From contig OX597842.1 in assembly GCA_951406725.2 (NCBI GenBank), forward strand, positions 13,888,001-13,952,000: a DNA stretch of 64,000 nucleotides, given 5' to 3'. This document shows, in pieces, positions 26,530-52,849 of this stretch (positions within the stretch are counted from its first letter, which is position 1; the number at the start of each line of letters is the position of its first letter). A program made the translations under genes and the position numbers. Source of the DNA: Octopus vulgaris (taxonomy: Eukaryota). The notes under the pieces are model-generated. The model was given only the letters and a program-made list of their open reading frames with translations. It was not told where the DNA came from and did no database searches.

Positions 26530-27097
26530 TATTTCGACTAAAGAATTAGACTATGGAAATCATGAAGAGTTGATTACGGTTCTGTTGAAATTGATAATGA
26601 TGATGATGATGATGTTCAAATTTGTGCAACTAACTGCGGTTGTCTATGGTAATGAATAAAGTTGATGATGAACCTGACAACGTTGACGCCTGAGAGAAAG
26701 AATAGTGTTGCGGAGAATAGTCTCGGTAATAATGATGGGAACGAAGAACGTTTCGGGGACCACTACCCTGGGATGATCATGAAGCAAGCAAGCTTGTAAT
26801 TGTGCACGCACGTGTGTATGCAAGCATGTGTGTATGTGTGTGTGTTTCTGTGTGCGTGTGTGTGTTAACTCAATATTTAAACATGAAGAACGAAGACTAT
26901 TACATCTTCAAAATTTATTTGTTGAAGCATTTTCTTCATATTACATTCATTGGTTAATCAGCCCAAGATTTCCTCAGGGTGCTAAAAAGTATCTGCTCGG
27001 ATTTCAAATCCCTATTCCATTAAGTTACATATGTGTGTGTGTGTGTGTGTGTGTGTCTGGCTGTGTGTATATATGTATGTATATGCATATGTATATA

Positions 27098-27988
27098 CGA
27101 GGGGATACACAAAAGTAACCGTAAATGTTCTCTGGAAGACAAACCCGTTGTAGTTCAGGTTTCCGTCGCTAAACTCCAATTGATGCGACTGTCAGGCATC
27201 AGTCAGCCAACCGGCGTTATCCGGTAGTGTTGTACTGCCGCGTAGTTCGTCTTTGTTTTGACGTGTTTCTGCTCAGTTCGTAAGTTTTTTGCAATGGCTG
27301 GAACGAAGGAACATTGTGCATCTGTGAAATTCTCTTTACTGCTGCTGAAAACTGCAGATGAAACAATTTTCATGCATCCCATCGCAAGGATGATGCAATG
27401 GGCAAAGCACAAGTTTATGAATGGTTTTCACGATTTAGAAATGGTCACTTGTCGATTGAAAACTAACCTCATTAATGACAACCGTCGACCTCCCGAACAT
27501 CATGAAAATTCATGATCTGATCCTGGAGGACCGTCACTGAGCAATTGATAAAATTGTTGACATGTCGGTTTTGCCCTGGAGCTCCTGCCAATGAATTTTG
27601 TGCGAGGAATTGTGAATGAAAAGCGTTCCAGCAAAATCTATGCCTCGTTTGCGCATGGAATGTCAAAAACAGTCACGGCTGAATGCGTGTCGTGAGCTAG
27701 AAGAACGATTATGAGATAATACGAAATTTTTTTCGAAGGTCATCAATGGTGACGAAAGCTGGTGCTACGGAATTTGAAGATGTTGAAGTGAGGAAAGAAA
27801 ACGATGGGGGCGTTAAAAAGCATCACTTCGGAATAGGTCCAACACTGATTCCAGTAGCTGAAAAGGCGCCTGCAACGATGCATTGATTAAAATGGAAAAT
27901 ACTCTGAACACAATAAAAATATAAATATGTAAAACTAAGTGAATAATATAATACTTCAAAATTACGGTTTCTTTTGGGCACCGCCTCG
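27098..27988 (+). mobile_element. Internally deleted mariner with imperfect TIRs and TA TSD
   Basis: TA|cgaggggatacacaaaagtaaccg ... cggtttcttttgggcaccgcctcg|TA; GDESWCYG and KRRLQRCID remnants. Confidence 0.88.
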
Positions 27989-30900
27989 TATGTATGTACA
28001 CACAAGCGGCTAAGGCCGAGCTTCCCTGGGATTATTAATACCTAAAATAGATATTATCTCATCATTTCCTTATATTTTGGGTAAACTGTTGTTTAAAAGA
28101 TGCCAAGATGCCGAAAATCCTCAGTTTGTCTGTGAATCTTAATTCACTGTGAATTGCAAATACACAGAACATAACAAAAAACTAAAATACACTTTACTTT
28201 TATATTTATATTTTCTGTGGTAAATGTTTTTAGAACACGCTACAAATTTTCAAAATATCTTTAAAGTAATTGCTTTTCTAACAAGTAAAATTTACAATGA
28301 CTAACGTAGTGCTTGAAGTATACAATGTTCTTATTTTTCCCTTGGTAGCAGACAAGTGGTGAAGATCTCAATCTCGAATGTCGGCTGGCAGGCTAAGACT
28401 TCATAGTTTTTATCTTACAGAATATGACTTATTGTACTCTGTACCTTATATATCTTCCCCTTTGCAACTGTACTCCCCATAACAAGGTGTTCTACACCCA
28501 TAACCCTTTAATTACTAGATTTACTTTGATTGTGAAATGATGTTAGGCTTGCTAATCATCATCTTGTAGGGAAGATTTAATAATTGTGTTGTCATCACTT
28601 TTCATTCGACAATTCATGAGTTCTTTTGTCTTTATTGGTCCATTTCGTTATACCTAGTTTTATTAAATTCTCATGCTGTTATATATCTATAATTATAGAC
28701 ATATCGTTAAATGTCACTAATTACAATAATATTTATGTATTACTGATGCTACCGATTCACATATTAATGATAATTTAGAGCTCAGGCATTCAAAGTTGAT
28801 ATTATTTCTGTGTGCATGCATTTTTGTATTGATGACTTTTACGGTTGGCGCTGTGATTAATTGTTTGAATGATAGGCCATATTTTGGGCCACAACCGATT
28901 GTGCCTTTTGTTTATCCCCACAAGAATCGATTCCAGATGAAGAAATAATTATAGGTATAAGTCAGTTTCATTATTCGGTTGGTACATAACATCTATGTTA
29001 GCTAAGTCTAAAAGCGTTAGCGGTAATACATTTCGGAAACTACATAGAAGTCCCTTTGTCTAGCTTCGTATCATTGTCACCATTGGCCAATGACTGACTT
29101 TCTCACTGAGACTACACCGCTGTCATATTGTTTCCCACGGCTTCGCCTGTAACCGTAGACTGTGTGGAAGATGGGTGATACGCTGAGCCAAAGGGCAGCT
29201 GTGTTTGCGCCAACAAAGTATTTCCTTATTTGACGTAATCCCTATATTCAAAGGATGTTCCATTGTCCACCGCCTGGTAACCTACCGAATTGTAGATTCT
29301 CACTCAAGATTTACTCATTCACACACACATTCATAGCCATCCTTAATTCGCGAGTCGAGCGAGTAATGTCTTGGCAACATATCTAATGCTTTTACTAATT
29401 GCTTCAGGTGCCTAAGTATTTCGAGTAGGGATAGATACACTTTTATGTCTCCAACCCTAACCCAGCTGTCGCATCCAACACTTGACTGGTACACATTTAC
29501 AACTAAGCAGACTGAATCAACCTTGATCAACGTCCCAAACACCGAGCTTAGTTCAGAACTGAACCAAACACATTATTATCGTGCAGCGACATGCTAATCA
29601 CTGTGTCATATCTTTCACACACACTGAGGTACTACAAGTAGAAACTGATACCAACAGCTCAAATGCAGGCCCAAACAAGTTTCCCTTCTCATCAACAAGT
29701 CACTGGATCCACGCTCAAATCATATCCAGTGCTATGGCAGTTTTAACAGTCGAAACATCTCAGCTCAGATTTGATCTATTGGCTCAGGCTAAAGTCACAG
29801 AGATGGGAACAGATTGCAGAAAATGATAGAATATCATAAATTGCCTGACAAGAAATTCAAAGTTGTCTCTTGAATAAAGTGCAAAATCTTTTCCCACAAA
29901 AACATTAAAAAATCTAAGGATTCTGGCAGCCATAAAGAATTCTCTTTTGTTTTCTTTGGGTCATGAAGGAAGTCACTTTTGAAGAAGAACGTCACTGTGG
30001 CGGAAGATCCCATGTATATCTAGGACTGAATTTAAAGTCATTTTTTTTCTTTTTAGAACCAGAAAATATTTCAATCCTAACAACTCCCACTTTTTGACGC
30101 TCAAGTAACCAAAGTAAGACCACTCTTTTTATTAAGATTTTTTCAGTAATATTAACCACTATGTTTAGTTCTTCATCCTCAGAACATCGGCTTGTGGAAT
30201 GTCCTCCAGGTTCTTGTCTTCTTTCCGATGGGAATTTATCTGTAATAATTTAAACGGAGCATTACCATCATCACTCTCACCCATATCACACAACCAGCGA
30301 AATTAATGAGCTCTACTCCTTCTTCAAAACGCAGATTTGAAGTGGGATTTGAAATTAAAATACAAAGAGCTAGAAAATTTCCATACGAGACTCAGTCACA
30401 CATCCCTACACTTTGTCTCGTCCACTGGCCTCTTTAAGTACGCAAAATACGTACGTTAAGGACGTCCTCGTCTAGATTTTAAGTCAGAATACCGAATGCT
30501 AGGTTAAATACCACTAGGTGTTACTCAACTCGACGGCCTGCAGGTTCGGCCAATGTTTGATTAAATTATGAATTAAATATAGAAAATTAAATATTTCTAA
30601 ATTATATATATCGTATATTCACCATCTGCAGATATACGGATTTCTATTTAATTCAGACTATCCCAAATGTGTAGAGAAGCAAGTGAATTCGCTTGAATCG
30701 ATCGAATATAGTATTGGAACATTTTATTTAAACTGGAAACTTGAAATATTTAATGCTATATAACTTTTTCTACTGTAGGCACAAGACCAGAAATTTTGGA
30801 GTAAGGAGAGTCGATTAGATCGACCCTAGTACGCAACTGTTACTTAATTTATCGACTCCGAAAGGATGAAAGGCAAAGTCAACTTCGGCGGAATTTGAAG

Positions 30901-33147: not shown

Positions 33148-33187
33148 TGGCTGTGTGTATATATGTATGTATATGCATATGTATATA

Positions 33188-34077
33188 CGAGGGGATACAC
33201 AAAAGTAACCGTAAATGTTCTCTGGAAGACAAACCCGTTGTAGTTCAGGTTTCCGTCGCTAAACTCCAATTGATGCGACTGTCAGGCATCAGTCAGCCAA
33301 CCGGCGTTATCCGGTAGTGTTGTACTGCCGCGTAGTTCGTCTTTATTTTGACGTGTTTCTGCTCAGTTCGTATGTTTTTTGCAATGGCTGGAACGAAGGA
33401 ACATTGTGCTTCTGTGAAATTCTGTTTACTGCTGCTGAAAACTGCAGATGAAACAATTTTCATGCATCCCATCACAAGGATGATGCAATGGGCAAAGCAC
33501 AAGTTTATGAATGGTTTTCACGATTTAGGAATGGTCACTTGTCGCTTGAAAACCAACCTCATTCATGACAACCGTCGACCTCCCAAACATCATGAAAATT
33601 CTTGATCTGATCGTGGAGGACCGTCGCTGACAATGGATGAACTTGTTGACATGTCGATTTTGTCCTGGAGCTCCTGCCAAAGAATTTTGTGTGAGGAATT
33701 GTGAATGAAACACGTTCCAGCAAAATCTATGCCTCGTTTGCTCACGGAATGTCAAAAACAGTCACGCCTGAATGCGTGTCGTGAGCAAGAAGAACGGCTA
33801 TGAGGTAATCTGAATGTTTTTTCGAAGGTCATCACTTGTGACGAAAGCTGGTGCTACGGAATTTGAAGATGTTGAAGTGAGGAAAGAAAACGATGGGGTC
33901 GTTAAAAAGCATCACTTCGGAATAGGTCCATCACTGATTCCAGTAGCTGAAAAGGCGCCTGCAACGATGCATTGATTAAAATGGAGAATAATTTGAACAC
34001 AATAAAAGTGTAAATATGTAAAACTAAGTGAATAATATAATACTTCGAAATTACGGTTTCTTTTGGGCACCGCCTCG
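33188..34077 (+). mobile_element. Duplicate copy of the mariner at 27098-27988
   Basis: Same TIRs, same flanks; copied by segmental duplication. Confidence 0.88.
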
Positions 34078-34530: not shown

Positions 34531-36084
34531 TTGAAAGGTGATGAAGAAGGCAACTTTTGTGTGCAGAGGCAAGAAATTTGATACGGTGGAGGTTAGGTGC
34601 GCAACAAAATATTGTGCGGCCTCGCTAGCTACCACCGTACTTAGAGCCGAAAACTTCATCATGTGGCCTACTTACAAAAGGAGAAGAGGGGTACGGGTCA
34701 AAATCCCAAATATACACCCAGAATTGAAGACAGAATGGCTGGCAACAGCCATCCTAGGGTCAGCTGAGGAAAGAGATAGAAATTGGCTCGATAAAGGAGA
34801 CCAACATCGTGAAATGGAAGGGATTCGGGGTTGACGGCCACAAACAGAGATATAGAACGGATTCCCTTCCAAACAGAAGTAGAAGATGGAAAAGCCCTCA
34901 GCGTAATCGTGGAGGGGAGGAAGCCTAATTGCTACTTGTGCGGGACAAGAGGACACATAAAAAAAGAATGTCCGCTATACGAATTCATGGCGGAGTGTGA
35001 AAGAGCAGAGGAATGACAAAGAACCCGAAGACAGGAACAATACACTAAAGGAGAAAGAAAGCAAGGAAAAGTAAACAACGGTAAAAGGAAATAACAATAC
35101 ACGGAAGGAAAATGAAAACAACGGAATAAATTAATAGAAAAAGAACAAAAGTCACAGGGTAGAGAAGTAATAGAGAAAGAACCAAAGCAAAATCAAGAGA
35201 AAGAAAAAGAAAGTAAAAGAGGAAAAAAACAAGAGAAGGAACAGAATCAAGAGAAAGGAAAGGATGTTACACAAAAAGAAAAAACAGGAAAAAAATACGA
35301 CAGACAAAGAGCCAAAAAGACAAGAGAAGGAAAAAGAAAGGGAAAGAAAAAAGAGAGAAAGAGAAAAACCGGGAGAGGAAGGTAAAGAAGAAGTCAATCC
35401 GAAGAGGAAACTAAAGAGAACATAGGTCCAAATAGAAGGTATAAATTTTATGGAACATTGGTTCAATACAGACACTGTGGGGGAGATGGAGGAAATAATA
35501 AGTGAAACAGAGGGATATTCACGGGTCAGGATGGGCACGGAGTGGAGGGAAACGGGTGCACTGGTCCATGAAGACAGCGCCGATGCGTTTATCGAGGCCA
35601 CCGGTGTGAACGTAGTAAGGCATGCGAAGTGCCGACTGGTAAGATACCCACGAGAGATGCAGAATTACAACGACCTGACAAAGGTAATGGAACTGATTTA
35701 AAATTATAGGAAAAAAAAAGAATTAGAAAAGACTTTTGTTAATTTCAAATGTACTTTGAAATCTTGAAAATGTATTATGAAAGCGTTATATTTGAATTTG
35801 TGGAAAACAATTTTTCTGTAAAATATTCAATTGATAATGTATTTTGGAAATTCTCTTTGGAAATTTATTGCGATCGAATGTATTGCGAAATGCTGTAAAA
35901 TGTATTTAGTTATTTTTGAAAATATTGTAAAATGTAATTAAAAATGACGAAATGTAACCACCTGATTTCGGGGATCGGGTGGGGCATTACACCACATTTA
36001 TACATACTTCATACCTCATTAATTTAATTTTTTTCCCGATTGTACTGTCCCCTCTATGTTCACCCCTTGTGGGTAGTAATAAAA
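34531..36084 (+). mobile_element. Element A: 5'-truncated ORF1-only (half-L1/Tx1-like) retroelement
   Basis: RGKKFDTVEVR...RVKIPNIHP...VEGRKPNCYLCGTRGHIKKEC (CCHC knuckle), K/E-rich linker, stop at 35701, 3' UTR with shared tail and AATAAA; no ORF2. Confidence 0.8.
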
Positions 36085-36384
36085 TCATTCAATTTAATTG
36101 ATGTCTGATTTTTCCGGTCCTTGAAGCGTGGTATTTGGAGTAATTTGTAAGTAACTGTTTAGCGTTTGTTAAACAAATTGTTGTTTTGTTTGAACTTTGA
36201 ACGTCTGATGTAATAACGAAAAATATTGTTATTCTCTTCCGTTAGGGGGGAAAAAGTGCTACACGTTACATACAAAAACAAATATATATATAACATTACA
36301 TTTGTGAAAAAAAAAATGAACAATACATTTGAAAAAATGAACAAAATAGACATGATGTCAAAAAAATGTTGTTTGAAGTGGAAA

Positions 36385-36560
36385 CACCGTCCGCTTCAAG
36401 TGACGAAGGTTTGCCTTCAAGTGAAGCAGTTTTACCTTCAGTGAAAGTCATCGAAGGTTCGCCTTCAAGTGTAGCTGTGTCTGCAGCTAAAATTATTGAA
36501 GGTTCGCCTTCAAGTGAAGCTGTGTCTGCTGCTAACGTTATCGAAGGTTCGCCTTCGAAA
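36385..36560 (+). repeat. ~42-bp degenerate tandem repeat at the start of element B ORF1 (VIEGSPSSEAVSAA)
   Basis: gaaggtt(c/t)gccttcaagtg recurs about four times at 42-bp spacing. Confidence 0.8.
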
Positions 36561-39500
36561 GGGAAACAAGCTAAAACGTAGAACTTCGCAGCCGCCGCTA
36601 GACGGAAGACGGAATAGATTAAAATGGAGGACACAGAATACAAAAAATACAAAAATATGTTTGTAAGGGAGGAGAATAATATAAAAGCCACCCTCCCAGA
36701 AGATATTAAAAATGAAACACAAAGAAGGATAGTGATTTACAAATCATTTGTAATAAAAGAGAAAAAAATCAAAAAAGTAACTAAAGAACAGGCAGAGAAG
36801 TGCCTGCAACCAATATGGCAAGACATAGATTTCGTGACATGGGGCAAAAAGTACGCCACAATAATGGTCTATTTTAAGAGCGAGCAAATGGCATGAAAGC
36901 ACTCGCTAACCCCATTTAAGGCGAGTGATATTGTTCTCTTGCTTTCCTATTTGGGGCAGAGGTCTGCCAAAATAAGAATCGAGGTAAAGTGGTTTCTTCC
37001 AGCCTTACTAATAGGGCTGGAAGAAAAAATAAGTGTTATAGAGATAACAAAGATCAGGATGGAAAACTGGAGAGGTCAAACTCTTCAAGTGACAGTACAG
37101 GCGGCCCTAAAGACATTGGAGGAGATCGCAGAAAATATCAATTTCAGCAATGAAATAAATTTGCGCGTGGTGGTGGAGGCCCGAAAGCCTCGATGCTACG
37201 GATGTGGTGAGAAAGGCCACATCCGTATAGACTGCTCCACCCGCAAGAAGAAGAAGAAGAGAAAAAAAGGACGGAAGCAGAGGAGAAGAGGAAAAAAGAG
37301 ACGGTGGAAGAGAAAACAACAGAAGAAAATGCCTTCACACTGGTGAAGCAAAAAAAAAACACCAAAAGGAAAAAAATGAAGACTTAAACCCACCCACCCC
37401 ATGCACAAGCAAAAAGAAAAATAACACACAGGGGAGAACATTTACCCCACCCAACCACGGTTCCCCACAAAAGAAAAGAAAGAGAAGACCCTCCCAACCC
37501 AACCCGAACAACCACTCCCACCCCTACCTCCCAGTGTCGAACAATTCCCTCCCCTCCCAAACTACTCCCCACCGTCCACCCCATCACCCCCACGAAGCCC
37601 AAAGAAAAAAATGGAAGGTTTAGAGATGGTGTACATCTCAATAAACAAAGATAATGATAGGTTGGTGAAACTTATTGATGAAGTCCCAACAGCGGAAAAA
37701 ATTCAAACTTACAGGGTATTGCCCAAAAATGTAGAAGTGTGTAAGATCGACATGTTAAATTACAACATTATACATGAGGAATACCCAAAATACATTAAAG
37801 GTCCGTGTCTCGACTTGCATGAGTCGTTGTATAAAGCGGACTTCCCCCCACGACCAACGGAAAAAAGGAAAACCAACTAAAAGGTAGGTGATGGCTCGTA
37901 TTCATGTAGGGTGCATAAATGTGCGTCGCCTGGTGTCGAATTGGAAGCAAGGGCGCCCCCTAAACGACATCAGGTCACGGGATTTAGATGTTGTTGTTGC
38001 CACAGAAACCTGGTTAAAGGGGCCAAGAGATCCACTCCCGCTGTTTGGCGGTTACGAGAGAATTATCTCTCCGAGCCGTCTGTCCGGCTGAAGCGGGGTG
38101 TTGGTCCTGTGTAAAAAGAACCGGGTTTCTGAGAAAAAGTTGATTTTTTTCAGATCCAGAAGGTAGACTGGCCTTCGTTGATTTGACGTTCAGTAGTCGT
38201 AAGACAATCAGGCTGGTTGCGGTTTACGCACCCCACAGTCAAGGGGAACAAAGTGATTATTTTCGGAACCTTGGAAAGTTTCTGAGTACATCGCATCCTT
38301 TAGTTGTTTTAGGAGACTTCAACACAGTCTACGATGTGCGGGTAGACTGTGAGGGCTCGCGAAGGAAAGGAAATGCTTGCTTCCAGGATCTACTAAGACG
38401 TTTCGAGCTGGTAGATCCATATAGAATGGAACATTCGAACGCTCCATTGTGGGCATGGTCAAACAGCGACGGATCTATCAAGTCGTACATAGACAGGATA
38501 TTAATTAGAAAAGTAGATAAGACACTAGCTAGGAGTCCACAGCTCCACATGGTCAGCTACAGTGACCACAAGATGGTCAACTGTAGGCTAGACATAGATA
38601 GGACGAATAGAGGTCCTGGTTACTGGAAACTTAATACGTCCCTTTTGGCGATTAAGGATAAGGTTAATGATTCAGAGGGATTTGACTGGAACAATAATTA
38701 ACAACATATGGTGGTATGCCCTCAAGCGAGCCATCAGTTATGAGTCCATTAGATATAGTATAGATCTAGTAGCTAGAGAGGCTAGAAGGGAATCAGCACT
38801 AGTTAAGGACTTAGAGCAAGCAATACGAACTGGCACGGCAGCCCAGGTGAAGGTCAAGAGACTGGTTTTAAACCAGCACCTCGAAGCCAAACACATGGGT
38901 TGCATTGTCAGGGCTAGACAACGTGCAATGGGGAGCGAAGGAATTAATGCCGCGAGATGGGCCGCAGTGGTGGAAGCCCAACGTGGCAACGATGCCACAA
39001 TTCGATCTTTGACGAACCAACAAGGTAAGTTGATAGACGAGCCCGAGGTGATGTGTGAAGCTTTTCAGGACCACTTCGCCCAGCTCTTTAGGGGGAGCGG
39101 CGGACCGGATAGGAGGAGAGGCCTAACGGACCTCCTCGACGGGCTGCCGCGCCTCTTGGAGCAGGACGTGAAGTGTAGTGAGAAGCCGATCACGCCTGGG
39201 GAAGTAATAGAAGCCATGGCTGACTGCGGCGCGGGTAAGGCTCCAGGACTGGATGGTCTACCCTACGAGCTTTATAAAAGTATGCCGGACTTGTTCGGGG
39301 TCTTACTGGCGAACGTCTACGCGAACTGGCAGCAGAATGGGTTTATTCCCAGATATGTGCGCCGCGGAGTGGTGACACTAATCAGGAAGGACCCGGACAA
39401 GGGGGATGACATTGATAATTTTAGGCCCATCACTCTGCTTAACGCAGAGCTGAAGATTTTGGCCAAAGTGTTATCGAACAGATTGGCGCGTGTCGCGGAT

Positions 39501-40794
39501 GGACTAATAGGGAAGGCACAAACGTGTGCCGTACCTGGCAGGTCCATTCACGATAATCTCCATCTAATTAGATACACTATAGAGGGAATTAATAGCGATC
39601 CCGGCAAGGGAGGGGTAGTGGTCCATTTAGACCAATCAAAAGCTTTCGATAGGGTCGACCATCATTACCTGGTGTCTGTTCTGGCTCAGTTCGGCCTGGG
39701 TCTTGGCTTCCTCAGGTGGATCATCGAAATGTACGATAACGTCGACTCGGTAGTTCAGATGAACGGCTTTATTTCTAAGCCGTTCAGAGTCAATGCTCGG
39801 GTCGTCAAGGATGCCCACTCTCCCCGCTTTTGTACGCAGTGGCTCTCGAGCCGCTGCTGCGAAAACTGAGTGGCATCCCGAGGCATCCAGGTTGTGGAAT
39901 GTTCGTTTCGGCGTACGCGGATGACATCACTATCATCGTGACTGAAGTGGACCTCCTACGTAAAGTAGGCAAGGCCATAGAGGTTTACGAGACGGTGACA
40001 GGAGCAAAAGTTAATCGCGAAAAGTCAGTCGGCTTGCAGCTCGGCACCTGGAGAGGCAAGTCGATGCCTTCAGACAGCGTCGTGGGACGTTGGACGGAGG
40101 GTCCGATAAAGTTGCTCGGGGTTTGGTTCGGACCAAAATAGAGAAGAACTGGAGCGAGGTATCGAGCAGGGTTGCTGCGGTAGCCAAGACCTGGTGTTAG
40201 CGGTGGTTTTCCCTGAAAGGTAGGGCGGAGGTAGCCAATGTGTTTATCGCATCGGTGATCACCTATGCCTTACCGTCGTGCCTTGCCCGGATTCGTGTTT
40301 GACCAAGTTGGAAAGACAGCTCTTCCACTTTTTGGGGAAGAGCTCGAAACCCCTTGTGAAACGCTCTGTTTGTTGTCAAAACCCGTTGAAGAGTTGACTA
40401 GGGATGCCGTGGTTAATGATGCGCAGAAATGCGCTGAGGTTAAGGCATCTGTGGCTCCATCTGGTCTCCGTTGGCGAAACAGATGTTTCCCAAGTTCACC
40501 AGTTTTGGTGGACGGGAAGCCTGGTATAATCGCAGGTCGAAGTTGGATACATGGTATACGGAGTGTCGCAAGGCACTCCGACTATTCCGTCGCTCGGGCA
40601 ATGCCTGCGGCAGTGGTTCTACCGCTGTTTTCTATAGAGGGTTTGTAGAGGCCGGTTGCGATGATACGTTAGGGGAAACCCTAGGTTTCGAAGATAATCA
40701 GCTGTCCAGTCTGTTCCAACGTACATTTGGGCCGAGGTCCCTGGATAATTTTCAGAAGTCCTTAGCTTGGCAGTGTTACCGAGGAGCCTTACCT

Positions 40795-41191
40795 TTACTC
40801 TTTTACTCTCTTACTTGTTTCAGTCATTTGACTGCAGCCTTGCTGGTGCACCACCTTTAATCGAGCAAATCGACCCGGGACTTATTCTTTGTAAGCCCAG
40901 TACTTATTCTATCGGTCTCTTTTTGCCGAACCGCTAAGTGACGGGAACATAAACACACCAGCATCGGTTGTCAAGCAATACTAGGGGGACAAACACAGAC
41001 ACACAAACACACACATATATACATATACACGACGGGCTTCTTTCAGTTTCCGTCTACCAAATCCACTCACAAGGCTTTGGTCGGCCCGAGGCTATAGTAG
41101 AAGACATTTGCCCAAGGTGGCACGCAGTGGGACTGAACCCGGAACCATGTGGATGGTAAGCAAGCAACTTACCACAGAGCCACTCCTGCGC
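40795..41191 (-). mobile_element. Full-length tRNA-derived SINE resembling octopus SINEs, inserted in element B ORF2
   Basis: Head gcgcaggagtggctctgtggtaag (A box) ... gggttcagtccc (B box); short (gagtaaaa)-type tail; the RT-distal sequence resumes on both sides. Confidence 0.88.
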
Positions 41192-41853
41192 AGGCAGGGT
41201 GGCCAAGTCAGCCCGACCTGTCCGAGGTGTGGGCGAGACAGGGAAACCGTCTCGCACGCGGTCGTGCAGTGCTCGGAGGTGGCAGACATGTGGGTTTTTG
41301 CCGAACAACTGTTGTCAAGTGGAGGAAGAGTACAGCTATCGACTGAATCCATTGTAAAATCGACCCACCGGATTTCTTAACGAAAGAAGATAAGAATTGT
41401 TTTCTCTCTGTGGTTTCAATTGCGAAACAAGCAGTATGGAAGACGAGGATGAAAGAGGTGATAGCAGGCAACTTCATCTCTGGTTCTAATCTGGTGGAAT
41501 ATTTTAAATTCCACCTAAAAAGACAAACAGAACTAGAGAGGAGGGGCCTGAGAAAGAAAGTGTTCGATGAAAGATGGAAGAATGTTGTGAGTAAAAGGCC
41601 CCTCATGAATGAAAGGTAAGCCGGAAAAAAAAGAAGAAAAAACCTAAGGTCAGTTTCGTGGCGGTTATCGTGGGGTCCGTAAGCCCGCCCCACTCCATCT
41701 GTGAAATTGTTTGTGTAAAAAATGTCCTATCATCCGAATTATATAATCATGTGTAAATTTTTAATAGACCCCAACGCACATTCTTGTAAAAACATTCGTG
41801 ATGTTCTGTCTTTATATGTAAAACCGTATGGTGAATAAAGAAATAATAGTTAA

Positions 41854-43634
41854 CAATTGCAGTCTTCATTGAGTGTGTGTTGTTAGTTGTGACAAGACGG
41901 TGAATTTTTTCTGTGTGTAAATTGATTTGGTATCGCGCGAGGCGTTTGCCTCCACGTGTGGAGACCTTCCGAAGAAGGTGAATTGACCCTCTAGTCATGG
42001 CGACTTACGCGGGGGGTCACCGGAAAAAAAGCGATTCGTCGCTAATAGTAAGGGAGGTGTTCTTTGAGAAGGAGAAACTCAAAGAATATGAAAAGCTTTT
42101 CAAAAGGGAGCGTGATAGCGTGAAGCTAACCCCCCCCCCCGCGAAAGCAAAAGAGGATAAAGAAAGCAAGACGGTGACATATAGAACCCAAGACAGGAGT
42201 ACGAAGAAACTGGCAAGAGTGGAGATAGACGAAATTGAGAAATGTCTGGGAGACATAATGGGAAAAATAACTTATGTGAGTAGAGGCAAGAAATTTGGTA
42301 CGGTGGAGGTTAGATGTGCAACGGAGGAAGTTGCGGCATCACTGGCTACCACCGTACTAAGAGCCGAAAAATTCACAATGTGGTCCTCATACGAGGGAAA
42401 AAGAGGGGTTCGGGTTAAAATCCCGAATATACCCCCATAAGTGAAAACAGAATGGCTGGCAACAGCTATTCTAGGAGCAGCAGAAGAGGAAGTGGAGGCG
42501 GAATCAATTAAGGAGTCCAACGTGGTAAACTGGAGAGGATATGGGGTAGAATTGTGGCTGATGGCCACAACAGAGGATATTGAAAGGTTTCCCTACAGAA
42601 TTGAAATTGAAGAGGAATAAACCCTCAGCGTAATTGTAGAGGGAGAAAACCAAACTGTTACTTGTGTGGGACAAGGGGGCACATTAAAAGAGAGTGCCCG
42701 TTATATGAATTCGTAGCGGAGTGCGAGCAGGAACTTGAAGAAAAGAAGAATACTGTAAATAAGAAAGAAAGCATAGAAAAGGAAAGAAAACAACAAGAGA
42801 AAGGAAATAATAAGTCAATGAAGGAAAAAGAAATAAAAGAAAAGGAAGAAATAGAACCAAAACAGAGTCAAGGAAAAAAAAGGATAAAGAAACAATAGGA
42901 ATAAAACAAGAGAGGTATCAGAATCAAACGAAAAGAAAGGACGGCACACAAAAGGAAAAAGAAAATACAGGAAAGGAACATAAAGCACGAGAGAAAACAG
43001 ACAAAGAGCCAAAAAGACAAGAGAAGGAAGGAGAAAGAAAAGAAGGCAAAAAGAGAGAAAGAGAGAAACAAAGAGAGGAGAACAAGGAAGAAATAAGCCC
43101 GAAAAGGAAGATGAAGGAACACGCAGGACGAAACAAGATTACTATTACTACAAGTTAGTAACCTACCATTTCTGCCCTGTAATGAATGACTTGACAAGTA
43201 AAACGGAGGGACATGTATGGGTCAACAGGATGACCGACCGGACGGGGGAGACTGCTCTTATCCCCGAAGAAAGAGCCGCTGAGTTCTTCAGAGCTGCCGG
43301 GGAAAATGTAATATTTTTCACGAAGGCTCGAGTGAGAGAGCGGCTACCTGAGGATTCAGTGATGGACTTCAGAGAAGTAGAAACAATCATAGAATATGTG
43401 TAACATTGTGAGAGGAAAAGAAAAAATAAATTGGTGAAATATATGTGATAAAACTGACGAAAATGTAACCTCTTGATTCCGGGGATCGAGTGGACATTTT
43501 CATCTCATTGTAAATATTCTTTCATATGTCATTATTACTTTTATTTTTTCCTTTTCTTGTCATTCGCTTTCTTATTTTAAGTTCCCCGATTGTGTTGTCC
43601 ATCTCTGTGTTAGCCTTTATGGTAAATAAAAAAA
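41854..43634 (+). mobile_element. Element C: apparently complete ORF1-only (half-L1/Tx1-like) retroelement, paralog of A
   Basis: 5' UTR, ORF1 41997-43403 with stops/frameshift (RGKKFGTVEVRC, CYLCGTRGHIKREC), 3' UTR with shared hairpin, tail and AATAAA; no ORF2. Confidence 0.82.
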
Positions 43635-46600
43635 TCATTGCAGTCTTAATTGTGCAGGTCTGTTTTGTCGATTATTACCGGTTTGTGAATTTAACTTCTG
43701 TTACTTTGTTTTATATATTGTGTATTTTGTGTAAAACTGTTATTAGCCTTCGCGCGAAGGCTACGTATTAAAATCCCCCCCCTCGCGGGAATTATTACTG
43801 TGAAACAATTATTGTGGAACAATTTTAAAATACACACAATAGGCTTGCGAAGCCATTTTTTTTTGAAGGCTTGTTAAAGCCAATTGAAAGGCTTGTTAAG
43901 CCACATCCGGAGATGGATACTCCTATCTCCTATTCACCTGTATCAGATGAAGAAAGTTCACCGGCGGTTTCGCCAAAAACTGCAGAAGTCCCAGCGAAGA
44001 AGTTCGCAGAAGCTGCAGGCAAAAAACAGAAAAAAATTAACACTGAAAAAAGCAACCTAGAAAAATATGCAGCATCTTCGAAAATGGAGGGTAATGAAGT
44101 GACAGTAATACAAGACGTCAGAAAGACAGATGAAGTAGATAAAAGAAGGACAATTTACAAAACGTATAATAAGACGATGAAAACCATTCAAAGAGTGGAA
44201 GAAAAAAATCGAGAATTGTTTAAAGACAATATGGAAAGACATCACATGCATAAACCGTGGCAGAAAATTCGGAACGGTTGAGGTGAGGTTCAGGACAGAG
44301 GAGATAGCCAAGAAGCTATCAACCGAACCTCTAAAAGCGGAGAATATAGTCCTCCTCCCCCTGTACAGAGGCAGAAGGACCTCGAAGATCAAAATAAACA
44401 ACATTCCCCCAGAGACAGACGCCACATGCCTGCTGGCGGCAGTGATATTAGGCCTGGAGGACAAGATCACTATCCTCCAGGCTACAGTAGAGGAGGAGGA
44501 GTATTTGCAAGGCCAATGCATCTCAATGGCGATGCAGGCGGAGGTTCAGGCGTTGGAAGAAATTCCAGAGACATTGAGGATCAGCGAGGAGGAGAGGGTG
44601 ATAGTGTTTGTGGAGGGCAGAAAGCCGATGTGTTTCGGCTGCGGTAAAAAGGGTCACGTGAGAGCGGAATGCCAACCTACGTCGTAGGAAGCAGCACCGC
44701 CAGAAAAAGAAAAACCAGAAGCGAAAACACCAGAAACTACAGAATCAAAAGAAACCAAAGAAGCAACAGAAACAACAAGCGGCGAAGAAAAGGAAAAAGA
44801 GGAGGGGTGGTCAAAAATCACCATGAAAAAACGGAAAACAAAAACCACCCCTCAGAAAGAGAGCTAAAAAAAGAGAAAAGAAACTACGAATACATTTATA
44901 GCCATTAAGGCAGCCAACAACAGGCTAATTAACGTTTTGGCAGCTATGGAAAAGGTGGAAATAATTAAAAAAACGAAAGACTTTATTGTTTATAGAATAG
45001 GCCGGAAGGATTACGGACGGATAAAGTCCGAATTCTACCATGATGTGGGCCCTCTGAGATTGGACATATCTCCATATATATACGAGGGCCTGCGTCGGAC
45101 TCCCCCACGAACCCAGGAAAAAGAAAAAAAAAGTGAATAAAATGAACAAGGCGTACAACTGATATAAGGTAAGTCATGGATTACATTTATGTTGGTTGTT
45201 TAAATGTGCGCGGCCTGGGATCAAGCGGGAAGCAGGGTCGTTTCCTTAATGATAACAGGTCGCGTAATTTGGATGTCATTGTTGCTACAGAAACCCGGTT
45301 AGAGGGGACAAGAGGTCTGCTCCCGCTGTTCGACGGCTACGAGAGTTTTCTCTCTCCGGCCAGTCCTACCGGCGGGGGTGGGGTGTTAGTCCTATTAAAA
45401 AGAAACCGGGTTTTTGAGAAAAAGTTAATTTTTTCAGACCCAGAAGGTAGGCTGGTCGTCATGGATTCGACGTTCAGTAACGGTAAAGTTATCAGACTGG
45501 TTGCAATTTACGCACCCAACCAAAAGGGGAAAAGTGATTATTTTCGAGAGCTGGAGAACTTTCTTGGTACTTCACATTCATTAGTTGTGCTAGGAGACTT
45601 TAACACAATTTGCAAAGCGGATGTAGATTGCGTTGGCTTGCGTCCAGATAGAAAAGGTAACATTGGCTTCCTGGAACTGCTAAGACGCTTTGAGCTAGCA
45701 GATCCTTATAGGCTGGAATTTCCGAATGCTCCATTGTGGACATGGTCAAGCAGCGACGGATCTTCCAGGTCATACATAGATAGAATACTAATTAGAAAAG
45801 TAGACAGAGAAATAGCTAAATGTCCACAGTTTTACCCGGTCAGCTACAGTGATCATAAAATGGTCACCTGTAAGCTTTACATAGATAAGGCTAATAATAG
45901 AGGCTCCGGTTATTGGTAACTGAATACGTCCCTTTTGGCGATTAAGGAGTACAGAGACCGGATTAGGACTATAATTCAGAGGGCGCTATCTGGTGCCATC
46001 ATTAATAACAAATGGTAGTATGCCCTCAAGCAAGCCATCAAATTCGAGACTATAAGATATAGCATAGGATTAGTGGCTAGAGAGGCTAGGAGGGAATCAA
46101 CTTTAGTTAAGAAATTAGAGGGAGCCATGAGAACTGGCTCTGTGGATCAGGTGAAGGCCAAGAGACTGGCGTTAAACCAGCACCCCGAGGCCAAACATAT
46201 GGGCTGCATTGTCAGGGCTAGGATCCGCGCAATAGGTTGTGAGGGAATCAACGCCGTGAGATGGGCCCGAGTGGTGGAAGCTCAGCGTGGTAATGACGTC
46301 ACAATTCGATCTTTGACGAACCAACAAGGTAAGTTGATAAACGAACCCGAGGAGATGTGTGAGGCCTTTCAGGAGCACTTCGCTCAGATTTTCTGTGGGG
46401 GCGGCGGACTGGATAGAAGGAGAGTCTTTACGGACCTCCTCGACGGGCTGCCGCGCCTATCGGTGCGAGAGGCGGAGGGCTGTGAAGGGCCAATCACGCC
46501 TGAGGAATAGGCGGAGGCGATGGCGGACTGCGGCGCGGGCAAGGTACCAGGTTTGGATGGTCTACCCTATGAGTTATATAAGAGTATGCCAGACTTGTTC

Positions 46601-48942
46601 GGGCACCTACTGACGGAGATCTACGCGAACTGGCAGCAGAACGGGTTCATTCCCAGATCTGTGCACCGGGGAGTTGTGATTCTTGTCAGAAAGGACCCGA
46701 GCAAAGGGGAGTGCATTGATAATTTCAGGCCCATCACTCTGCTAAACACAGAGTTGAAGATTTTGGCCAAAGCGTTATCGAAAAGATTGGCGAGTGTCGC
46801 GAATAGTCTAATCGGGGAGGCACAGACATGTGCCGTTCCCGGCAGATCCATTCAGGATAATCTCCATCTTATGCGGTACACTATAGAGAGGTTTAATAGT
46901 GATTCTGGCAAGGGTGGGGCACTTGTCCATTTAGACCAATCTAAAGCATTCGATAGGGTCGACCATCGCTACCTGGTGTCTGCCCTGGCACAGTTTGGGC
47001 TGGGCCTTGGCTTCCTCAGGTGGATTATCCAAATTTACGATAACATCGACTCGGTAGTTCGGGTGAACGGCTTCTTTTCGAGGCCGTTCAACATCAAGCG
47101 CTCGGTTCGTCAAGGGTTTCCGCTCTCCCCGCTTTTGTACGTGGTGGCTCTTGAGCCATTACTGCGAAAACTGAGCGGCATCCCGAGACAACCAGGTTGT
47201 GGAAAATCGGTGTCAGCTTACGCGGATGACATCACCATCATCGTAACCGAAATGGATCACCTACAGAGGGTAGGCAAGGCCATAGAGGTTTACGAGACGG
47301 TGACAGCAGCAAAGGTTAATCGTGAAAAGTCAGTTGGCTTGCAGCTCGGCACCTGGAGAGGCAAGCTCGGCACCTGGAGAGGCAAGCTCGGCACCTGGAG
47401 AGGCAAGCTCGGCACCTGGAGAGGCAAGCTCGGCACCTGGAGAGGCAAGCTCGGCACCTGGAGAGGCAAGCTCGGCACCTGGAGAGGCAAGCTCGGCACC
47501 TGGAGAGGCAAGTCGATGCCTCCTGACAGCGTCGTGGGACGATTAAGTTGCTAGGGGTTTGGTTTGGACCAGACCTCCAAATAGAGAAGAACTGGGGCGA
47601 GGTATCGAGCAGGGTGGCTGCGGCAGCCAAGACGCGGTCTTAGCGGTGGCTATCCCTGAAAGGAAGGGTGGAGGTAGCCAATGTGTTTATCGCATCGGTT
47701 ATCACCTACCGCCTATCCGTCGTTCCTTGCCCTGATTCGTGGTTGATCAAGTTGGAAAGACAGCTCTTCTACTTCTTGTGGAAGGGCGGGAAACCAATTG
47801 TGAAACGCTCTACTTGCTGTCAACAACCGTTAAAAGGTGGACTAGTGATGCCTTGGCTGATTATGCGCAGAAATGCGCTGAGGATAAGACATCTGTGGCT
47901 CTACCTGGATGGTGAACGGGTGTGGTCTCCGCTAGCAAAACTGATGTTTCCCAAGTTCACTAGTTTCGGTGGATGGGAAACCTGGCTGAATCGTAGATCG
48001 AAACTGGGCACATGGTACACGGAGTGTCGCAAGGCTCTCCTGCTATTCCGTCGCTCGGGCAACGCCTGCGGTGGGGGTTCCACCATATTCTTCTATAGAG
48101 GGTTGGTAGAGGCGGAATGTGAAGATACCTTAGGGGAAGAACTAGGTCTCGACGATAACCAGCTGGCCAGTCTGTTCCAATGTACATTCGGGCCGACGAC
48201 CCTGGACAACTTCCAGAAGTCTCTGGCATGGCAGTATTACAGAGGAGCTCTACCTGTTCGGGATAAACACGCAAGGCACGGTGGTCAAGACAGTCCGATA
48301 TGTCCAAGATGCGGGCGGGATAGGGAAACCGTCCCGCACGCTATTGTTCATTGTTCGGTCGTGTTAGAGGTGTGGGTTCATTGTTCGGTCGTGTCAGAGG
48401 TGTTGGTGTACGAAGAGTACAGCTGTCGACTGAGTCTATTATAAAAATTGACCCACCAGATTTCCTCGCGAAAGAAGGTAAGAATTGTTTACTCGTTGTA
48501 GTAGCAATTGCGAGAGACGTGATTTGGAAGACTAGGATGAAAGGTTTACGGTCAGGCAAGTTCATCTCCGGCCCTGGATTGATGAATTATTTCATCTTTC
48601 ACCTAAAAAGGAATATAGAGTTGGAGAGAAAATGCCTGACTAAGAAAGTGTATGAAGAACGATGGAAGGATGTAGCACGAAAGTTGCGAATGGATGACAC
48701 CACATAAATGTAAAACAAGACGAAACCAAAGTATCAGTGGTGAGGCGGGGCTCGTGGGGTCCGAGCTAAACCCGCCCCCACTCCATCCGTAATGTCTTCC
48801 GGTCTGTTCTTCATTCGATTTTATATTTTTGCATTTTTGTGAATTTTTAATCTCATCTTTTTTGTAACTCCATCCGAGAATCTGATCCCACACCAGGTTG
48901 TATTGTCCCCTCTATGTTCGCCCCTTGTGGGTAATAATAAAA
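43635..48942 (+). mobile_element. Element D: full-length decayed L1/Tx1-clade retrotransposon (ORF1 ~43913-45140; ORF2 45176-48707)
   Basis: ORF1 CFGCGKKGHVRAEC; ORF2 CLNVRGL, LGDFN, SDHK, RQGFPLSPLLY, AYADD, CPRC; a few in-frame stops. Confidence 0.93.
47343..47512 (+). repeat. Perfect 21-bp tandem repeat x8 (agctcggcacctggagaggca; LGTWRGK) inside element D ORF2
   Basis: Single copy at the homologous site of element B (~40038-40060). Confidence 0.95.
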
Positions 48943-49304
48943 CAATTCCAGTCTGTTATATATTTTGAGTATTGTTATCACTAGAGATATCAAGATATAA
49001 CTTTGTATTTTGTATTTTATGTGTAGATGTATATATATATATAGATGTACATGTAATATGTACACACATATATACACATATATACATGCACTAGCACTAT
49101 AATTCTAGTCTATATATAAAACTGAGAATATGTGTGTCTGTCTGTTAGTCTGTCAGTCAGTCTGTCTGTCTCTCTTTTAATAGTTTCATTTCATCATTTC
49201 ACTATGTATATATATATATCTATATATATATATATACTTATTTGTATATATATTAATACATTCGCTTGTAATATTTTTACTCCTATTAGTTTCACTATGT
49301 ATAT

Positions 49305-50005: not shown

Positions 50006-50339
50006 ATAACAATATAATAAATAAATAAAATATATGCATATATACGTACATATATGTACATACTTATATCTACATGTATATATACAAGCATATATATATA
50101 TTTATGAGTACAGGATAACACAACGTGAAACGAAAACAAAATCAAACAAAAAAAACGGACTTTTTTTAACAACGAAAAAACAGAGTACAGGACAAACAAT
50201 GCAAGGAAAATTCCCCTTCATCAGCTGTCCCTGGTTCGGCTCAATGCGTGTTTCGAAGGTAAGGACAGAACACGGCCAGGCCGAAGCAGTCCTTCCTGCA
50301 AGAAAGTCGTCGCACTTTCACTTCTCTAATCCTCTATAG

Positions 50340-52800
50340 AAAGTTAAAGTGCACGTTCCACCTATTGCAGTGCCCGACTAGCTGAGAGCTGTGAGCGCTT
50401 GAAGACATTCCACCTTCCAAATGTCTCCTCTCGGTCACTCTTTTACCGAGGACTGAAGCTCTGTTAAAGAAACTAGCTGCGGAAATGTGTGTCTGGCGAA
50501 CGGTGATAACATCTCTTCACCGTCAAGCACTTGAAATGTAGCCTCAGCGCATACCTGCGCATCATTCACCACGGCTTATCCAGGACACCACGCAGCGGGT
50601 GTTGACAGCAGATATACCACCTGAACTTCGGGACGCATCCTTTCCACAAGAAGCGGGAGAGTATGCGCTCCAGCATAATCAGATAATGGCCTGGACAAGA
50701 CACGGCGGTGAAGCGATAGTAGACGGCGGACACGATATACGCGTTAGCCACCTCTGCCCGACATTTCAGGAATAGCTTTCTCTCGGCCCGTTTCCGGGTG
50801 AGAGTAGGCACCCAGCTCGTTACCTCGTCCCAGTTTCTACCCATTTGCTGGTCCGGAGCAAACCACACCTCCAACAATTTAACCGATCCGTCCGGTGCCG
50901 AAAGACGCAGTTCGATGGCATGGACTTGTTTCTCTATGGTGCCGAACCGAAAGTCCACTGATTTTTCTGGTTAATTGTCACCTCTGAAACTGCCTCGTAG
51001 ACCTTGAAAGCGGTGCGGGCCATGTTTATGTTTCATGATCCGACACCACTACGGTGACGTCACCGGCATGTCCCGACATGAATCTCCCAATTCCTAGGTC
51101 ACGCTGAATGCTTATCAAAACTTCCACTTTATGTATTAGTTGATCGAGAGTCAGTACATGCAAGAGAGTCGAGAGGGGTAACCTACTCGGACCGAGCGCA
51201 TGATGTTGAACGGTTGTGATAGGTGACATTCCACTCTGACCACTGAACCGATATCGATGTGTCGCAGCGATCCAGCCAATGAATGCAGGCCCAAAACAAA
51301 CTGCTTTGAGGAACCGCCGCCACGTATAGATTGTCGATCCGATCAAATGCTTTAGAGTGATCTAAATTAATCAGAGCGCCATGCGTGTCAGTTTCTTTAA
51401 CCACTTTCTCACAGATGTATCGCATAAGGTGGAAGTTATGGATGGATTATCTCGGGAGTGTGCAAGTCTGGGCCACCCCTACCAGATACCCGACGACAAG
51501 CGCCAACGTAGTAGCTAACACTTTAGCCAAAATTTTGAACTCTGCATTCAGCAGAGATATAGGCTTTAATCTGTCAATACATTCCCCCTTGTTCGGTTCT
51601 TTTCTCAGCAAGGCCACCGCTGCTCGGCTCTCAAAACTGGGAATCCTCCAATTCTGTTATCAGTTGCAGTAAACTTTTGCTAAAAGGTCGCAGAACAAGT
51701 TTGGTATGTAAGCATAAAGCTCGTAGAGAAGACCATCCAAACCAGGGGTTTACTCCTCATGCTGCCAGCCATTGCCTCCTGTATTTCAAAGGCAGTTATC
51801 AGCCTTTCGCAGCTCTCCGCCTATGTCGCTGAGAGCCGCGGCAGCCCTTCGAGTTAAGATGTGAAATTCATCCTGAGGTCCGGCTCGCCGCTCCTCTCAA
51901 GCATTGAACGAAGCGCAGATGAAAGGTAGCTCACGTCCATTTCGTATCAATTATTATTTGCCGGTCATGGTTCAACAAGAATCATAACGTGGATTTATTG
52001 CAACGGTGTCCTTCTGCCACTCAGGCACATTATACGGCTTTCGGCCCTTTGTGTCTAAATGTTCGTGCCTTATCTCTGACAAAGCAACCTTCGTGTTTCA
52101 CGTTGAAGAATTGGTCGACTCCTAATCTCGCTTCGAGCATGTTGGTCACAAAGCCTCTACTTTATTTCTTTCTGCTGCTGGGGACTTGTTAAATCTTATC
52201 GGTTCTAATAACCCTTTTTTAGGGCGAATCACCATTTAATGTTGATTATTGTCCCCGTCAAGGCCCTCTTAATCAGTTCACTAATCCTATCTCTGAAATG
52301 TTTGTGCGCTGGCAACGAAATGTTCAGCTTCCAGCAACCGGGTTCCTGTCTATGAAGCGTGCCTAAGTCGACAGTACAGTTCACAAATGCGTGGCCTGTG
52401 TAGTCGACTACTTTAAATTGTGGACAACCTATGCTATCCTAATCTACTACTTTACAGAATACTCTATCTAGATACGATATAGATGACCCGATGTTGCTTG
52501 ACCAGGTCCATACTGGTACATCATGGAGATCCAGTCGATATCTGCCAGACAGTTGGAATCATCTGAACAGGTTTGCAAGGCTTTTGCATCCTTCTACGTA
52601 CCATATCTTAGGTCTAAAATTCCATTCAAATACCCCATTAATACTAAAGAGCGATCGTTCCCTGGAAAGTTTCCAAACGTCTGAAGAAATCAGGTCGTTC
52701 TGCCCCTGTCGGGCAGAGAGGGCAACTGGCCTGGAAGTATGCCCTTCACTGCCTGTCACGTCGAGAACCACCGACTTAATTTCCGGATCCAGGGAGATCG
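50340..52800 (-). mobile_element. Older decayed L1/Tx1-clade ORF2 (EN-RT), related to B and D, opposite orientation
   Basis: GALINLDHSKAFDRID, PISLLNAEFKILAKVLA, VKLLEVWFAPD, RAEVANAYI, FLWKG. Confidence 0.85.
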
Positions 52801-52849
52801 TCCGTATTCCACACCAAACACATAAAAATAAACATACCCTTTAACCTAG

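Follow-up and report, generated by a model that had tools for sequence, protein, structure and literature searches.

Introduction

Tx1-clade long interspersed nuclear elements (LINEs) with transposon targets are on record: Tx1L inserts in Tx1D (piggyBac), Tx1-Mar and SINEU-3 insert in Mariner-N4_AMi, and Tx1-9_AMi inserts in Harbinger, as described in PMC4494074. Non-autonomous LINEs with open reading frame 1 (ORF1) present include HAL1, HeT-A and Ag-Sponge (listed in PMC5786205 and PMC5753468). Here we describe a 64,000-nt window of the Octopus vulgaris genome (contig OX597842.1; G000:C29:13888001-13952000, with positions below numbered within the window) that holds a head-to-tail train of two full elements (ORF1 plus ORF2) and two half elements (ORF1 only) of L1/Tx1 type at a single Helitron site. 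The train likely grew by single insertions at its front, with the half elements likely borrowing the enzyme of the full ones via a common 3' tail; we put the probability of this reading at roughly 85%.

The locus resembles the transposon-targeting Tx1 systems, in which a LINE with APE and RT domains and its dependent non-autonomous partners use one DNA-transposon site and tandems sandwich the target duplication (PMC4494074). It differs from them in its Helitron target, in partners that are ORF1-coding half elements and not short interspersed nuclear elements (SINEs), and in polar chains of up to 23-24 units. It shares with HAL1, HeT-A and Ag-Sponge an ORF1 without ORF2 and a 3' tail in common with an autonomous element; that list covers the L1, Jockey and CR1 clades only, whereas here at least three deep ORF1 lineages occur at one interstitial site. 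The HeT-A/TART/TAHRE (HTT) arrays of Drosophila are likewise polar and head-to-tail, combine ORF1-only with full elements and have ORF1-only lineages that spawn new families, and repeated ORF2 loss is called striking in that work, as Jockey elements outside telomeres show no such loss (PMC13534243). Unlike these telomeric arrays, the octopus trains are interstitial, occur at many loci, carry target duplications, belong to L1/Tx1 and not Jockey, and have no known host role. TRE5-A.1 and TRE5-A.2 of Dictyostelium offer an ORF2-less derivative mobilized in trans to the same position-specific target, with tandems at occupied sites, but that target lies upstream of tRNA genes, the derivative is a single family and the tandems are short (PMC5391098). 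In the R1 tandems and double-insertion dimers of Drosophila, repeated insertion leaves duplications between units and unequal exchange follows, but the arrays are of a single family and have no half-element partners (PMC5932611). The individual ingredients, namely transposon-targeting Tx1 elements, tandems with duplications and partners such as HAL1, HeT-A or TRE5-A.2, are thus known, and their combination appears to be new. No published description of Helitron-targeted trains with ORF1-only partners was found in a search whose range ended short of Repbase and subscription journals. An octopus repeat annotation lists 13 recently active L1-Tx1 families; the words "target", "nested" and "HAL1" do not occur in its main text, and its supplements may hold these families (PMC13282606).

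Results

Four abutting units make up the window train

The train consists of units A, B, C and D, in that order, which lie on the same strand and are separated by just 10-25 nt (Table 1). A and C align over 909 nt at 71% identity, and the ORF2 regions of B and D are about 80% identical. Both B and D gave APE, RT and zf-RVT matches (Pfam; tblastn), and a homology search recovered no ORF2 remnant in A or C (best E 0.54). Each unit is terminated by its own AATAAA, at 36083 (A), 41839 (B), 43630 (C) and 48941 (D). An earlier sequence-only reading of the window had described four abutting units, A and C as ORF1-only, B and D as full, each with its own AATAAA, and all of this is borne out. Its statement that no host DNA lies between the units also stands, with the amendment that the short spacers are target-site remnants. 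All four units carry stops or frameshifts and are decayed. A lacks about 380 nt at its 5' end and is fused to an unrelated local repeat; matches of its family all start at query position 8-11, and full copies carry about 380 nt of extra 5' sequence. Beyond D comes no host DNA; 48941-49100 is a Helitron right half, 95% identical to the empty element and without its terminal hairpin. The same type of junction is met again at dozens of loci, which puts the arrangement far beyond chance. In this 2.8-Gb genome, the window lies at 13.9 Mb of a 34.6-Mb contig and most trains are interstitial, so this is not a chromosome-end array of HTT type.

A common target position in a non-autonomous Helitron

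The left and right flanks of the trains join into an empty element, a non-autonomous Helitron of about 0.9 kb with the ends A/TC and hairpin-CTAG/T (the slash marks the boundary). It begins with 5' TC, ends in 3' CTRR with a subterminal hairpin and lies between A and T without duplication, as is typical of Helitrons. The upstream flank is common to many copies and the downstream flank of window D is common to other trains. A search with the upstream flank yielded at least 40 copies at 98-100% identity, 40 having been scored from 1231 first-look candidates. Among 30 Helitron loci, 12 were empty, 14 were empty apart from an ORF1 remnant of about 300 bp, and 4 were occupied, one of these being the query (one empty copy was reassigned by eye). 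The hairpin-CTAG end was present in 13 of the 30 copies, followed by T in 12; of 23 5' ends located, most were A/TC or T/CT.. variants in TA-rich flanks. The genome holds 78 exact 56-nt empty sites.

Units of A, B, C and D type were each found inserted directly in empty Helitrons. Of thirty exact tails, the first of 222 in coordinate order and not chosen by similarity to the window, 12 led into the Helitron right half, 16 into a further unit and 2 elsewhere; the sample is concentrated in trains of two contigs. With 28 of 30 tails entering a Helitron or another unit, the copies are not solitary elements with random flanks. Of 30 D-family loci, 27 copies remained once the query itself, a segmental duplicate and a rearranged copy had been set aside; upstream of these 27 lay 15 half elements, 6 Helitron left halves, 1 full element and 5 other sequences. 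A TATA-like box was seen, by eye only, 28-39 nt upstream of the insertion points. One Helitron subfamily has spread the related ORF1 remnant of about 300 bp at the target (L064:1890-2190 and 13 others), and this remnant supplies a second insertion point used by younger subfamilies.

Spacers and polarity point to probable growth at the front

For 59 half elements, the left spacer of each was compared with its right spacer. In 30 of them the two had an exact run of at least 12 nt in common, against 5.5% of cross-locus pairs; the within-locus mean was reached by 0 of 10,000 permutations, and the matched spacers include rare locus-specific variants. At the Helitron-A-B and Helitron-A-D loci L150 and L148, the same 15-17 nt flank A on both sides, and at some junctions sequence of the Helitron left half is trapped between units. 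Among adjacent C pairs (n = 20), the left copy lay deeper in the tree in 12, the right in 4, and 4 were tied; all 8 depth differences above 0.01 were left-deeper. Along the train with 22 C units, 20 of which were aligned, units at the left end stand at a distance of 104-110 from an old subfamily and those at the right end at 72-79, and the spacer variants change stepwise; the younger C subfamilies lie further to the left. The B/C and C/D spacers of the window train have a common one-base variant that is not in the empty Helitron site, and the B/C spacer takes in about 10 nt that in the Helitron precede the usual insertion point; these two features fit an insertion in the order D, C, B, A.

Passage through RNA is indicated by one G-family unit, in which 83 of 94 changes from its neighbour are A>G and a 5' G is depleted at the changed sites (5/83 against 102/341 in the background), which we take to be the established pattern of A-to-I editing. 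This unit forms the left end of a five-unit train at a non-Helitron target (G000:C2:158830797-158832443; L233), with a TATA-like box 29 nt upstream, and one A>G change falls in the left spacer itself. No A>G excess was found in window A, B or D, in the private changes of 45 C copies or in 20 units of the C7 train; window C was masked by its duplicate in this test. Among contigs of three presumed-RNA runs and one unlabelled run, none listed bridges a young C-D junction with 31 nt on both sides, and two X2 contigs that cross this junction reach about 25 nt into C.

Several observations weigh against this account. The polarity sign test without a threshold is weak (p = 0.077), and the 0.01 cut-off was chosen afterwards. 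A unit's own right spacer was the best or tied match in only 18 of 59 elements, many of the duplications are imperfect by 1-3 mismatches, and long exact runs are inflated where neighbours are of the same family. Imperfect spacers require an extra step, the overwriting of the spacer by RNA leaders, for which the basis is the layered heads of the units together with one edited base. A four-unit block is repeated near-exactly in the C10 train, so not every unit there is a separate insertion, and a minority of targets lie beyond the Helitron. In the window itself the Helitron left half and the 5' duplication of A are lost, and private divergence does not order the four units by age.

The half elements are old families that share a tail with the full ones

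The C family gave at least 69 matches (38 of 351 candidates scored), of which 59 span most of the query, many in tandem, and the A family gave at least 59 (40 of 462 scored). Further ORF1-only families, here named E, F, G and X, were found among neighbouring units. The ORF1 cores of all these half families fall into three lineages (A/C; E/F/G; X), which have about 30-40% identity with one another and with the B and D ORF1s; window C is an early-branching copy of its family, basal in a tree rooted with the A family. The ratio of nonsynonymous to synonymous substitution (dN/dS) within half lineages was 0.11-0.18 in 7 of 7 pairs, which on these divergences indicates that the half families are old and under selection. 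Since the half elements form multicopy families with deep ORF1 lineages and low dN/dS, their origin as one-off internal deletions of an ORF2-bearing family is excluded.

A CCHC knuckle is present in 16 of 16 ORF1 cores, and a predicted model of the C ORF1 core (predicted local distance difference test score, pLDDT, 83.7) matches tandem RRM proteins; a profile search with ORF1 among longer proteins gave no match, which is weak evidence. The last 45-50 nt or so are common to half and D-type elements: the A and D tails are 90% identical over 51 nt, and young C and D tails 98% over 44 nt. The tail of window C has diverged and showed no match, and tail folding revealed no structure common across families. 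Half elements likely use the ORF2p of full elements in trans via this tail. A and C each form a multicopy family whose members are of constant length and have ORF1 but lack ORF2, and their independent retrotransposition is marked by duplications and dispersed sites, with editing marks in one related G-family unit. They work like HAL1 without being members, HAL1 proper being mammalian and L1-derived and the present elements having a non-mammalian context and an ORF1 with RRM and CCHC motifs. The view that true ORF1-only families and full elements form a partner system, one of two offered earlier, is supported by dispersed families with a common 3' tail.

For the full elements, the best match of ORF2 in the PDB was human LINE-1 ORF2p (E 1e-61, compared with 1e-24 for R2). 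B and D have an ORF2 with APE, RT and a C-terminal zinc-binding domain and a separate ORF1 with RNA-binding domains, as in the L1/Tx1 group. One named ORF2 relative in the homologue search is from Argonauta, and neither this search nor a cluster look-up returned a Tx1-named reference. Target preference of Tx1 type, taken as more than 20% of flanks in one repeat (PMC4494074), is seen in the 12 of 30 tails that run directly into the Helitron, besides the 16 that enter train units. The Tx1 label is tentative and reflects behaviour. An intact ORF2 of 1131 aa is present in the genome. The D-type copies L101, L179, L181 and L183 are 99% alike in ORF2 and 76-96% alike in the 5' untranslated region and ORF1; the ORF1 appears to have been swapped repeatedly among autonomous elements.

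Composition of the trains and alternative explanations

We annotated 27 trains by hand, chosen for holding arrays, leaving out three duplicated loci and the C7 train. Their 125 junctions comprised 89 half-half, 22 half-full, 8 full-full and 6 full-half. Some trains hold no full element, and the longest contain 23 half units and 1 full unit (44.3 kb) or 22 C and 1 D (44.4 kb), both bracketed by Helitron halves; assembly error may affect these longest arrays. Adjacency of half and full elements is frequent, as the sequence-only reading had expected, but the strict alternation it took from the window is found in this train alone (1 of 27) and is incidental. Copies of A-B and B-C-D at 15.6 Mb of C29 are segmental duplicates that reach into the flanks and were not counted. 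A duplicated train at G000:C10:43.60 Mb and C15:65.73 Mb, whose contents have diverged since, includes an internal deletion derivative of D of about 1 kb, made up of its 5' part and tail, which may be a non-autonomous element in the making.

Such adjacency could mean that A+B and C+D are bipartite units with two Gags and one Pol, copied together by read-through, and half-to-full junctions are indeed common, the C and D distances correlate over all 22 C-D pairs (rho 0.51) and one multi-unit block occurs on two chromosomes. Yet 10 of 13 C pairs less than 1.6% apart adjoin D 5' regions more than 15% apart, and the correlation vanishes in 17 young pairs (rho 0.06, p 0.26), with the caveat that D elements swap 5' parts, which would also blur the pairing. 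The shared block also has a common upstream flank, and half-only trains and full-full junctions exist. As a general mode, co-mobilization proposed from the window is largely refuted, and we give it next to no weight. The spread of trains as passengers of a loaded Helitron by rolling-circle transposition is scarcely more credible: one Helitron subfamily did carry the ORF1 remnant to 14 of 30 copies, but contents differ at nearly every locus, and the two duplicated trains examined extend past the Helitron ends into flanking DNA.

Elements might instead recognize each other's 5' ends, as in self-targeting Zepp, with the Helitron as a mere seed. Duplications often extend into the start of the head of the previous unit, layers of sequence left from earlier targets persist in the heads, and short trains also stand at non-Helitron sites. 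However, it is the upstream flank that stays constant while the sequence downstream of the insertion point varies between loci, growth is biased to the junction that keeps this flank, and units of all four types enter empty Helitrons directly. We consider this account unlikely, and the suggestion that half and full elements target each other's termini gives way, as primary cause, to a common Helitron site whose duplicated spacer is regenerated before each new unit. Unequal exchange starting from a dimer, with the trains mainly satellites, has a described mechanism (PMC5932611) and is favoured by the 0-1 substitutions that separate units u04-u07 from u08-u11 in the C10 G array and by seven C7 units that differ by 0-2. 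In most trains, however, different families or subfamilies stand together, and the closest relatives of these are on other chromosomes; each of the four units in the window train comes from a different family, and one G unit elsewhere carries the RNA-editing marks. Unequal exchange does not explain mixed trains like that of the window and remains a contributor to the longest arrays; as the main origin of the trains it is quite improbable.

Proposed mechanism and implications

Growth by single insertions would proceed as follows. The ORF2p of a D- or B-type element would nick near the fixed Helitron position and reverse-transcribe an RNA there; the target is that seen in the present analysis, and the chemistry, nicking and reverse transcription at the target, is established for this class. 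Insertion duplicates about 11-18 nt, as the spacers record, and restores an intact Helitron left half with spacer before the new unit. The next element, full or half, would then enter the regenerated junction and extend the train 5'-ward, in the window in the order D, C, B, A as judged from junctions and trees. Half elements would provide their own ORF1p, with two predicted RRMs, a CCHC motif and a record of selection, and would recruit ORF2p in trans. Near-identical units also occur in long trains, which may have gained length when whole blocks were duplicated or through bursts from a single source.

More tentatively, the Helitron site may be a promoter-like safe harbour, an interstitial counterpart of the telomere niche of flies, where newcomers take the front and displace older units. 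Sharing it would have allowed no fewer than three ancient lineages with ORF1 alone to survive under selection, as a guild outnumbering a single enzyme donor. We hold this to be possible and well short of probable; if true, ORF2 loss would follow from target sharing and not from telomeric location. The trains offer a datable natural record, at many loci, of ORF1-only parasites and full LINEs at one landing site, and a non-telomeric L1/Tx1 case makes the cause of ORF2 loss testable. They add the Helitron to the targets of site-specific LINEs and point to an intact, site-preferring ORF2p. Repeat annotation will mistake such trains for satellites or chimeric consensus repeats.

Feature coordinates and additional observations

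Table 1. Units, spacers and target sequence of the train, in window positions.
Feature	Position	Strand	Basis or remark
Unit A, half (ORF1-only), 5'-truncated, decayed	34538..36086	+	leftmost, likely last added
A/B spacer, target remnant and head of B	36087..36100	+	flank comparison
Unit B, full (ORF1+ORF2), L1/Tx1-type, decayed	36091..41844	+	Pfam, tblastn, family search
B ORF1	~36363-37880	+	
B ORF2	37891-41620	+	
Later ~0.4-kb insertion in B ORF2, common interspersed repeat	40795..41191	.	gap in B/D alignment
B/C spacer, degenerate Helitron target copy	41845..41866	+	empty site, B junctions elsewhere
Unit C, full-length ORF1-only	41867..43636	+	ORF1 41997-43400, decayed
C/D spacer, 11-nt duplicate of B/C spacer	43637..43647	+	compared with empty site
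Unit D, full (ORF1+ORF2), decayed	43648..48943	+	likely first insertion
D ORF1	from 43913	+	
D ORF2	45176-48704	+	
Right half of target non-autonomous Helitron	48944..49108	+	95% to empty element

The later insertion in B matches many unrelated loci; it is tentatively SINE-like. Within D ORF2, a perfect 21-bp unit is repeated eight times at 47343-47512, with two copies in the segmental duplicate, and may be a recent expansion or an assembly slip. In a duplicate of B (G000:C29:15627066-15628387; L114, L142), a 90/45-bp unit of the ORF1 N-terminus has expanded to about 15 copies.

Outside the train, 50297-52804 on the minus strand, in opposite orientation to the train, holds a decayed L1/Tx1-like ORF2 that is 30-56% identical to D-type ORF2, and 19913-20893 holds a distant RT remnant of another LINE family (21% to D-type ORF2). 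That the whole train entered the local repeat to the left of A by 3' transduction was considered and rejected, as that repeat does not resume beyond the Helitron half. A decayed DNA transposon at 33180-34077, presumably Mariner-like by its termini, lies within a local repeat that recurs at about 27000-28450 and at G000:C29:15.62-15.64 Mb.

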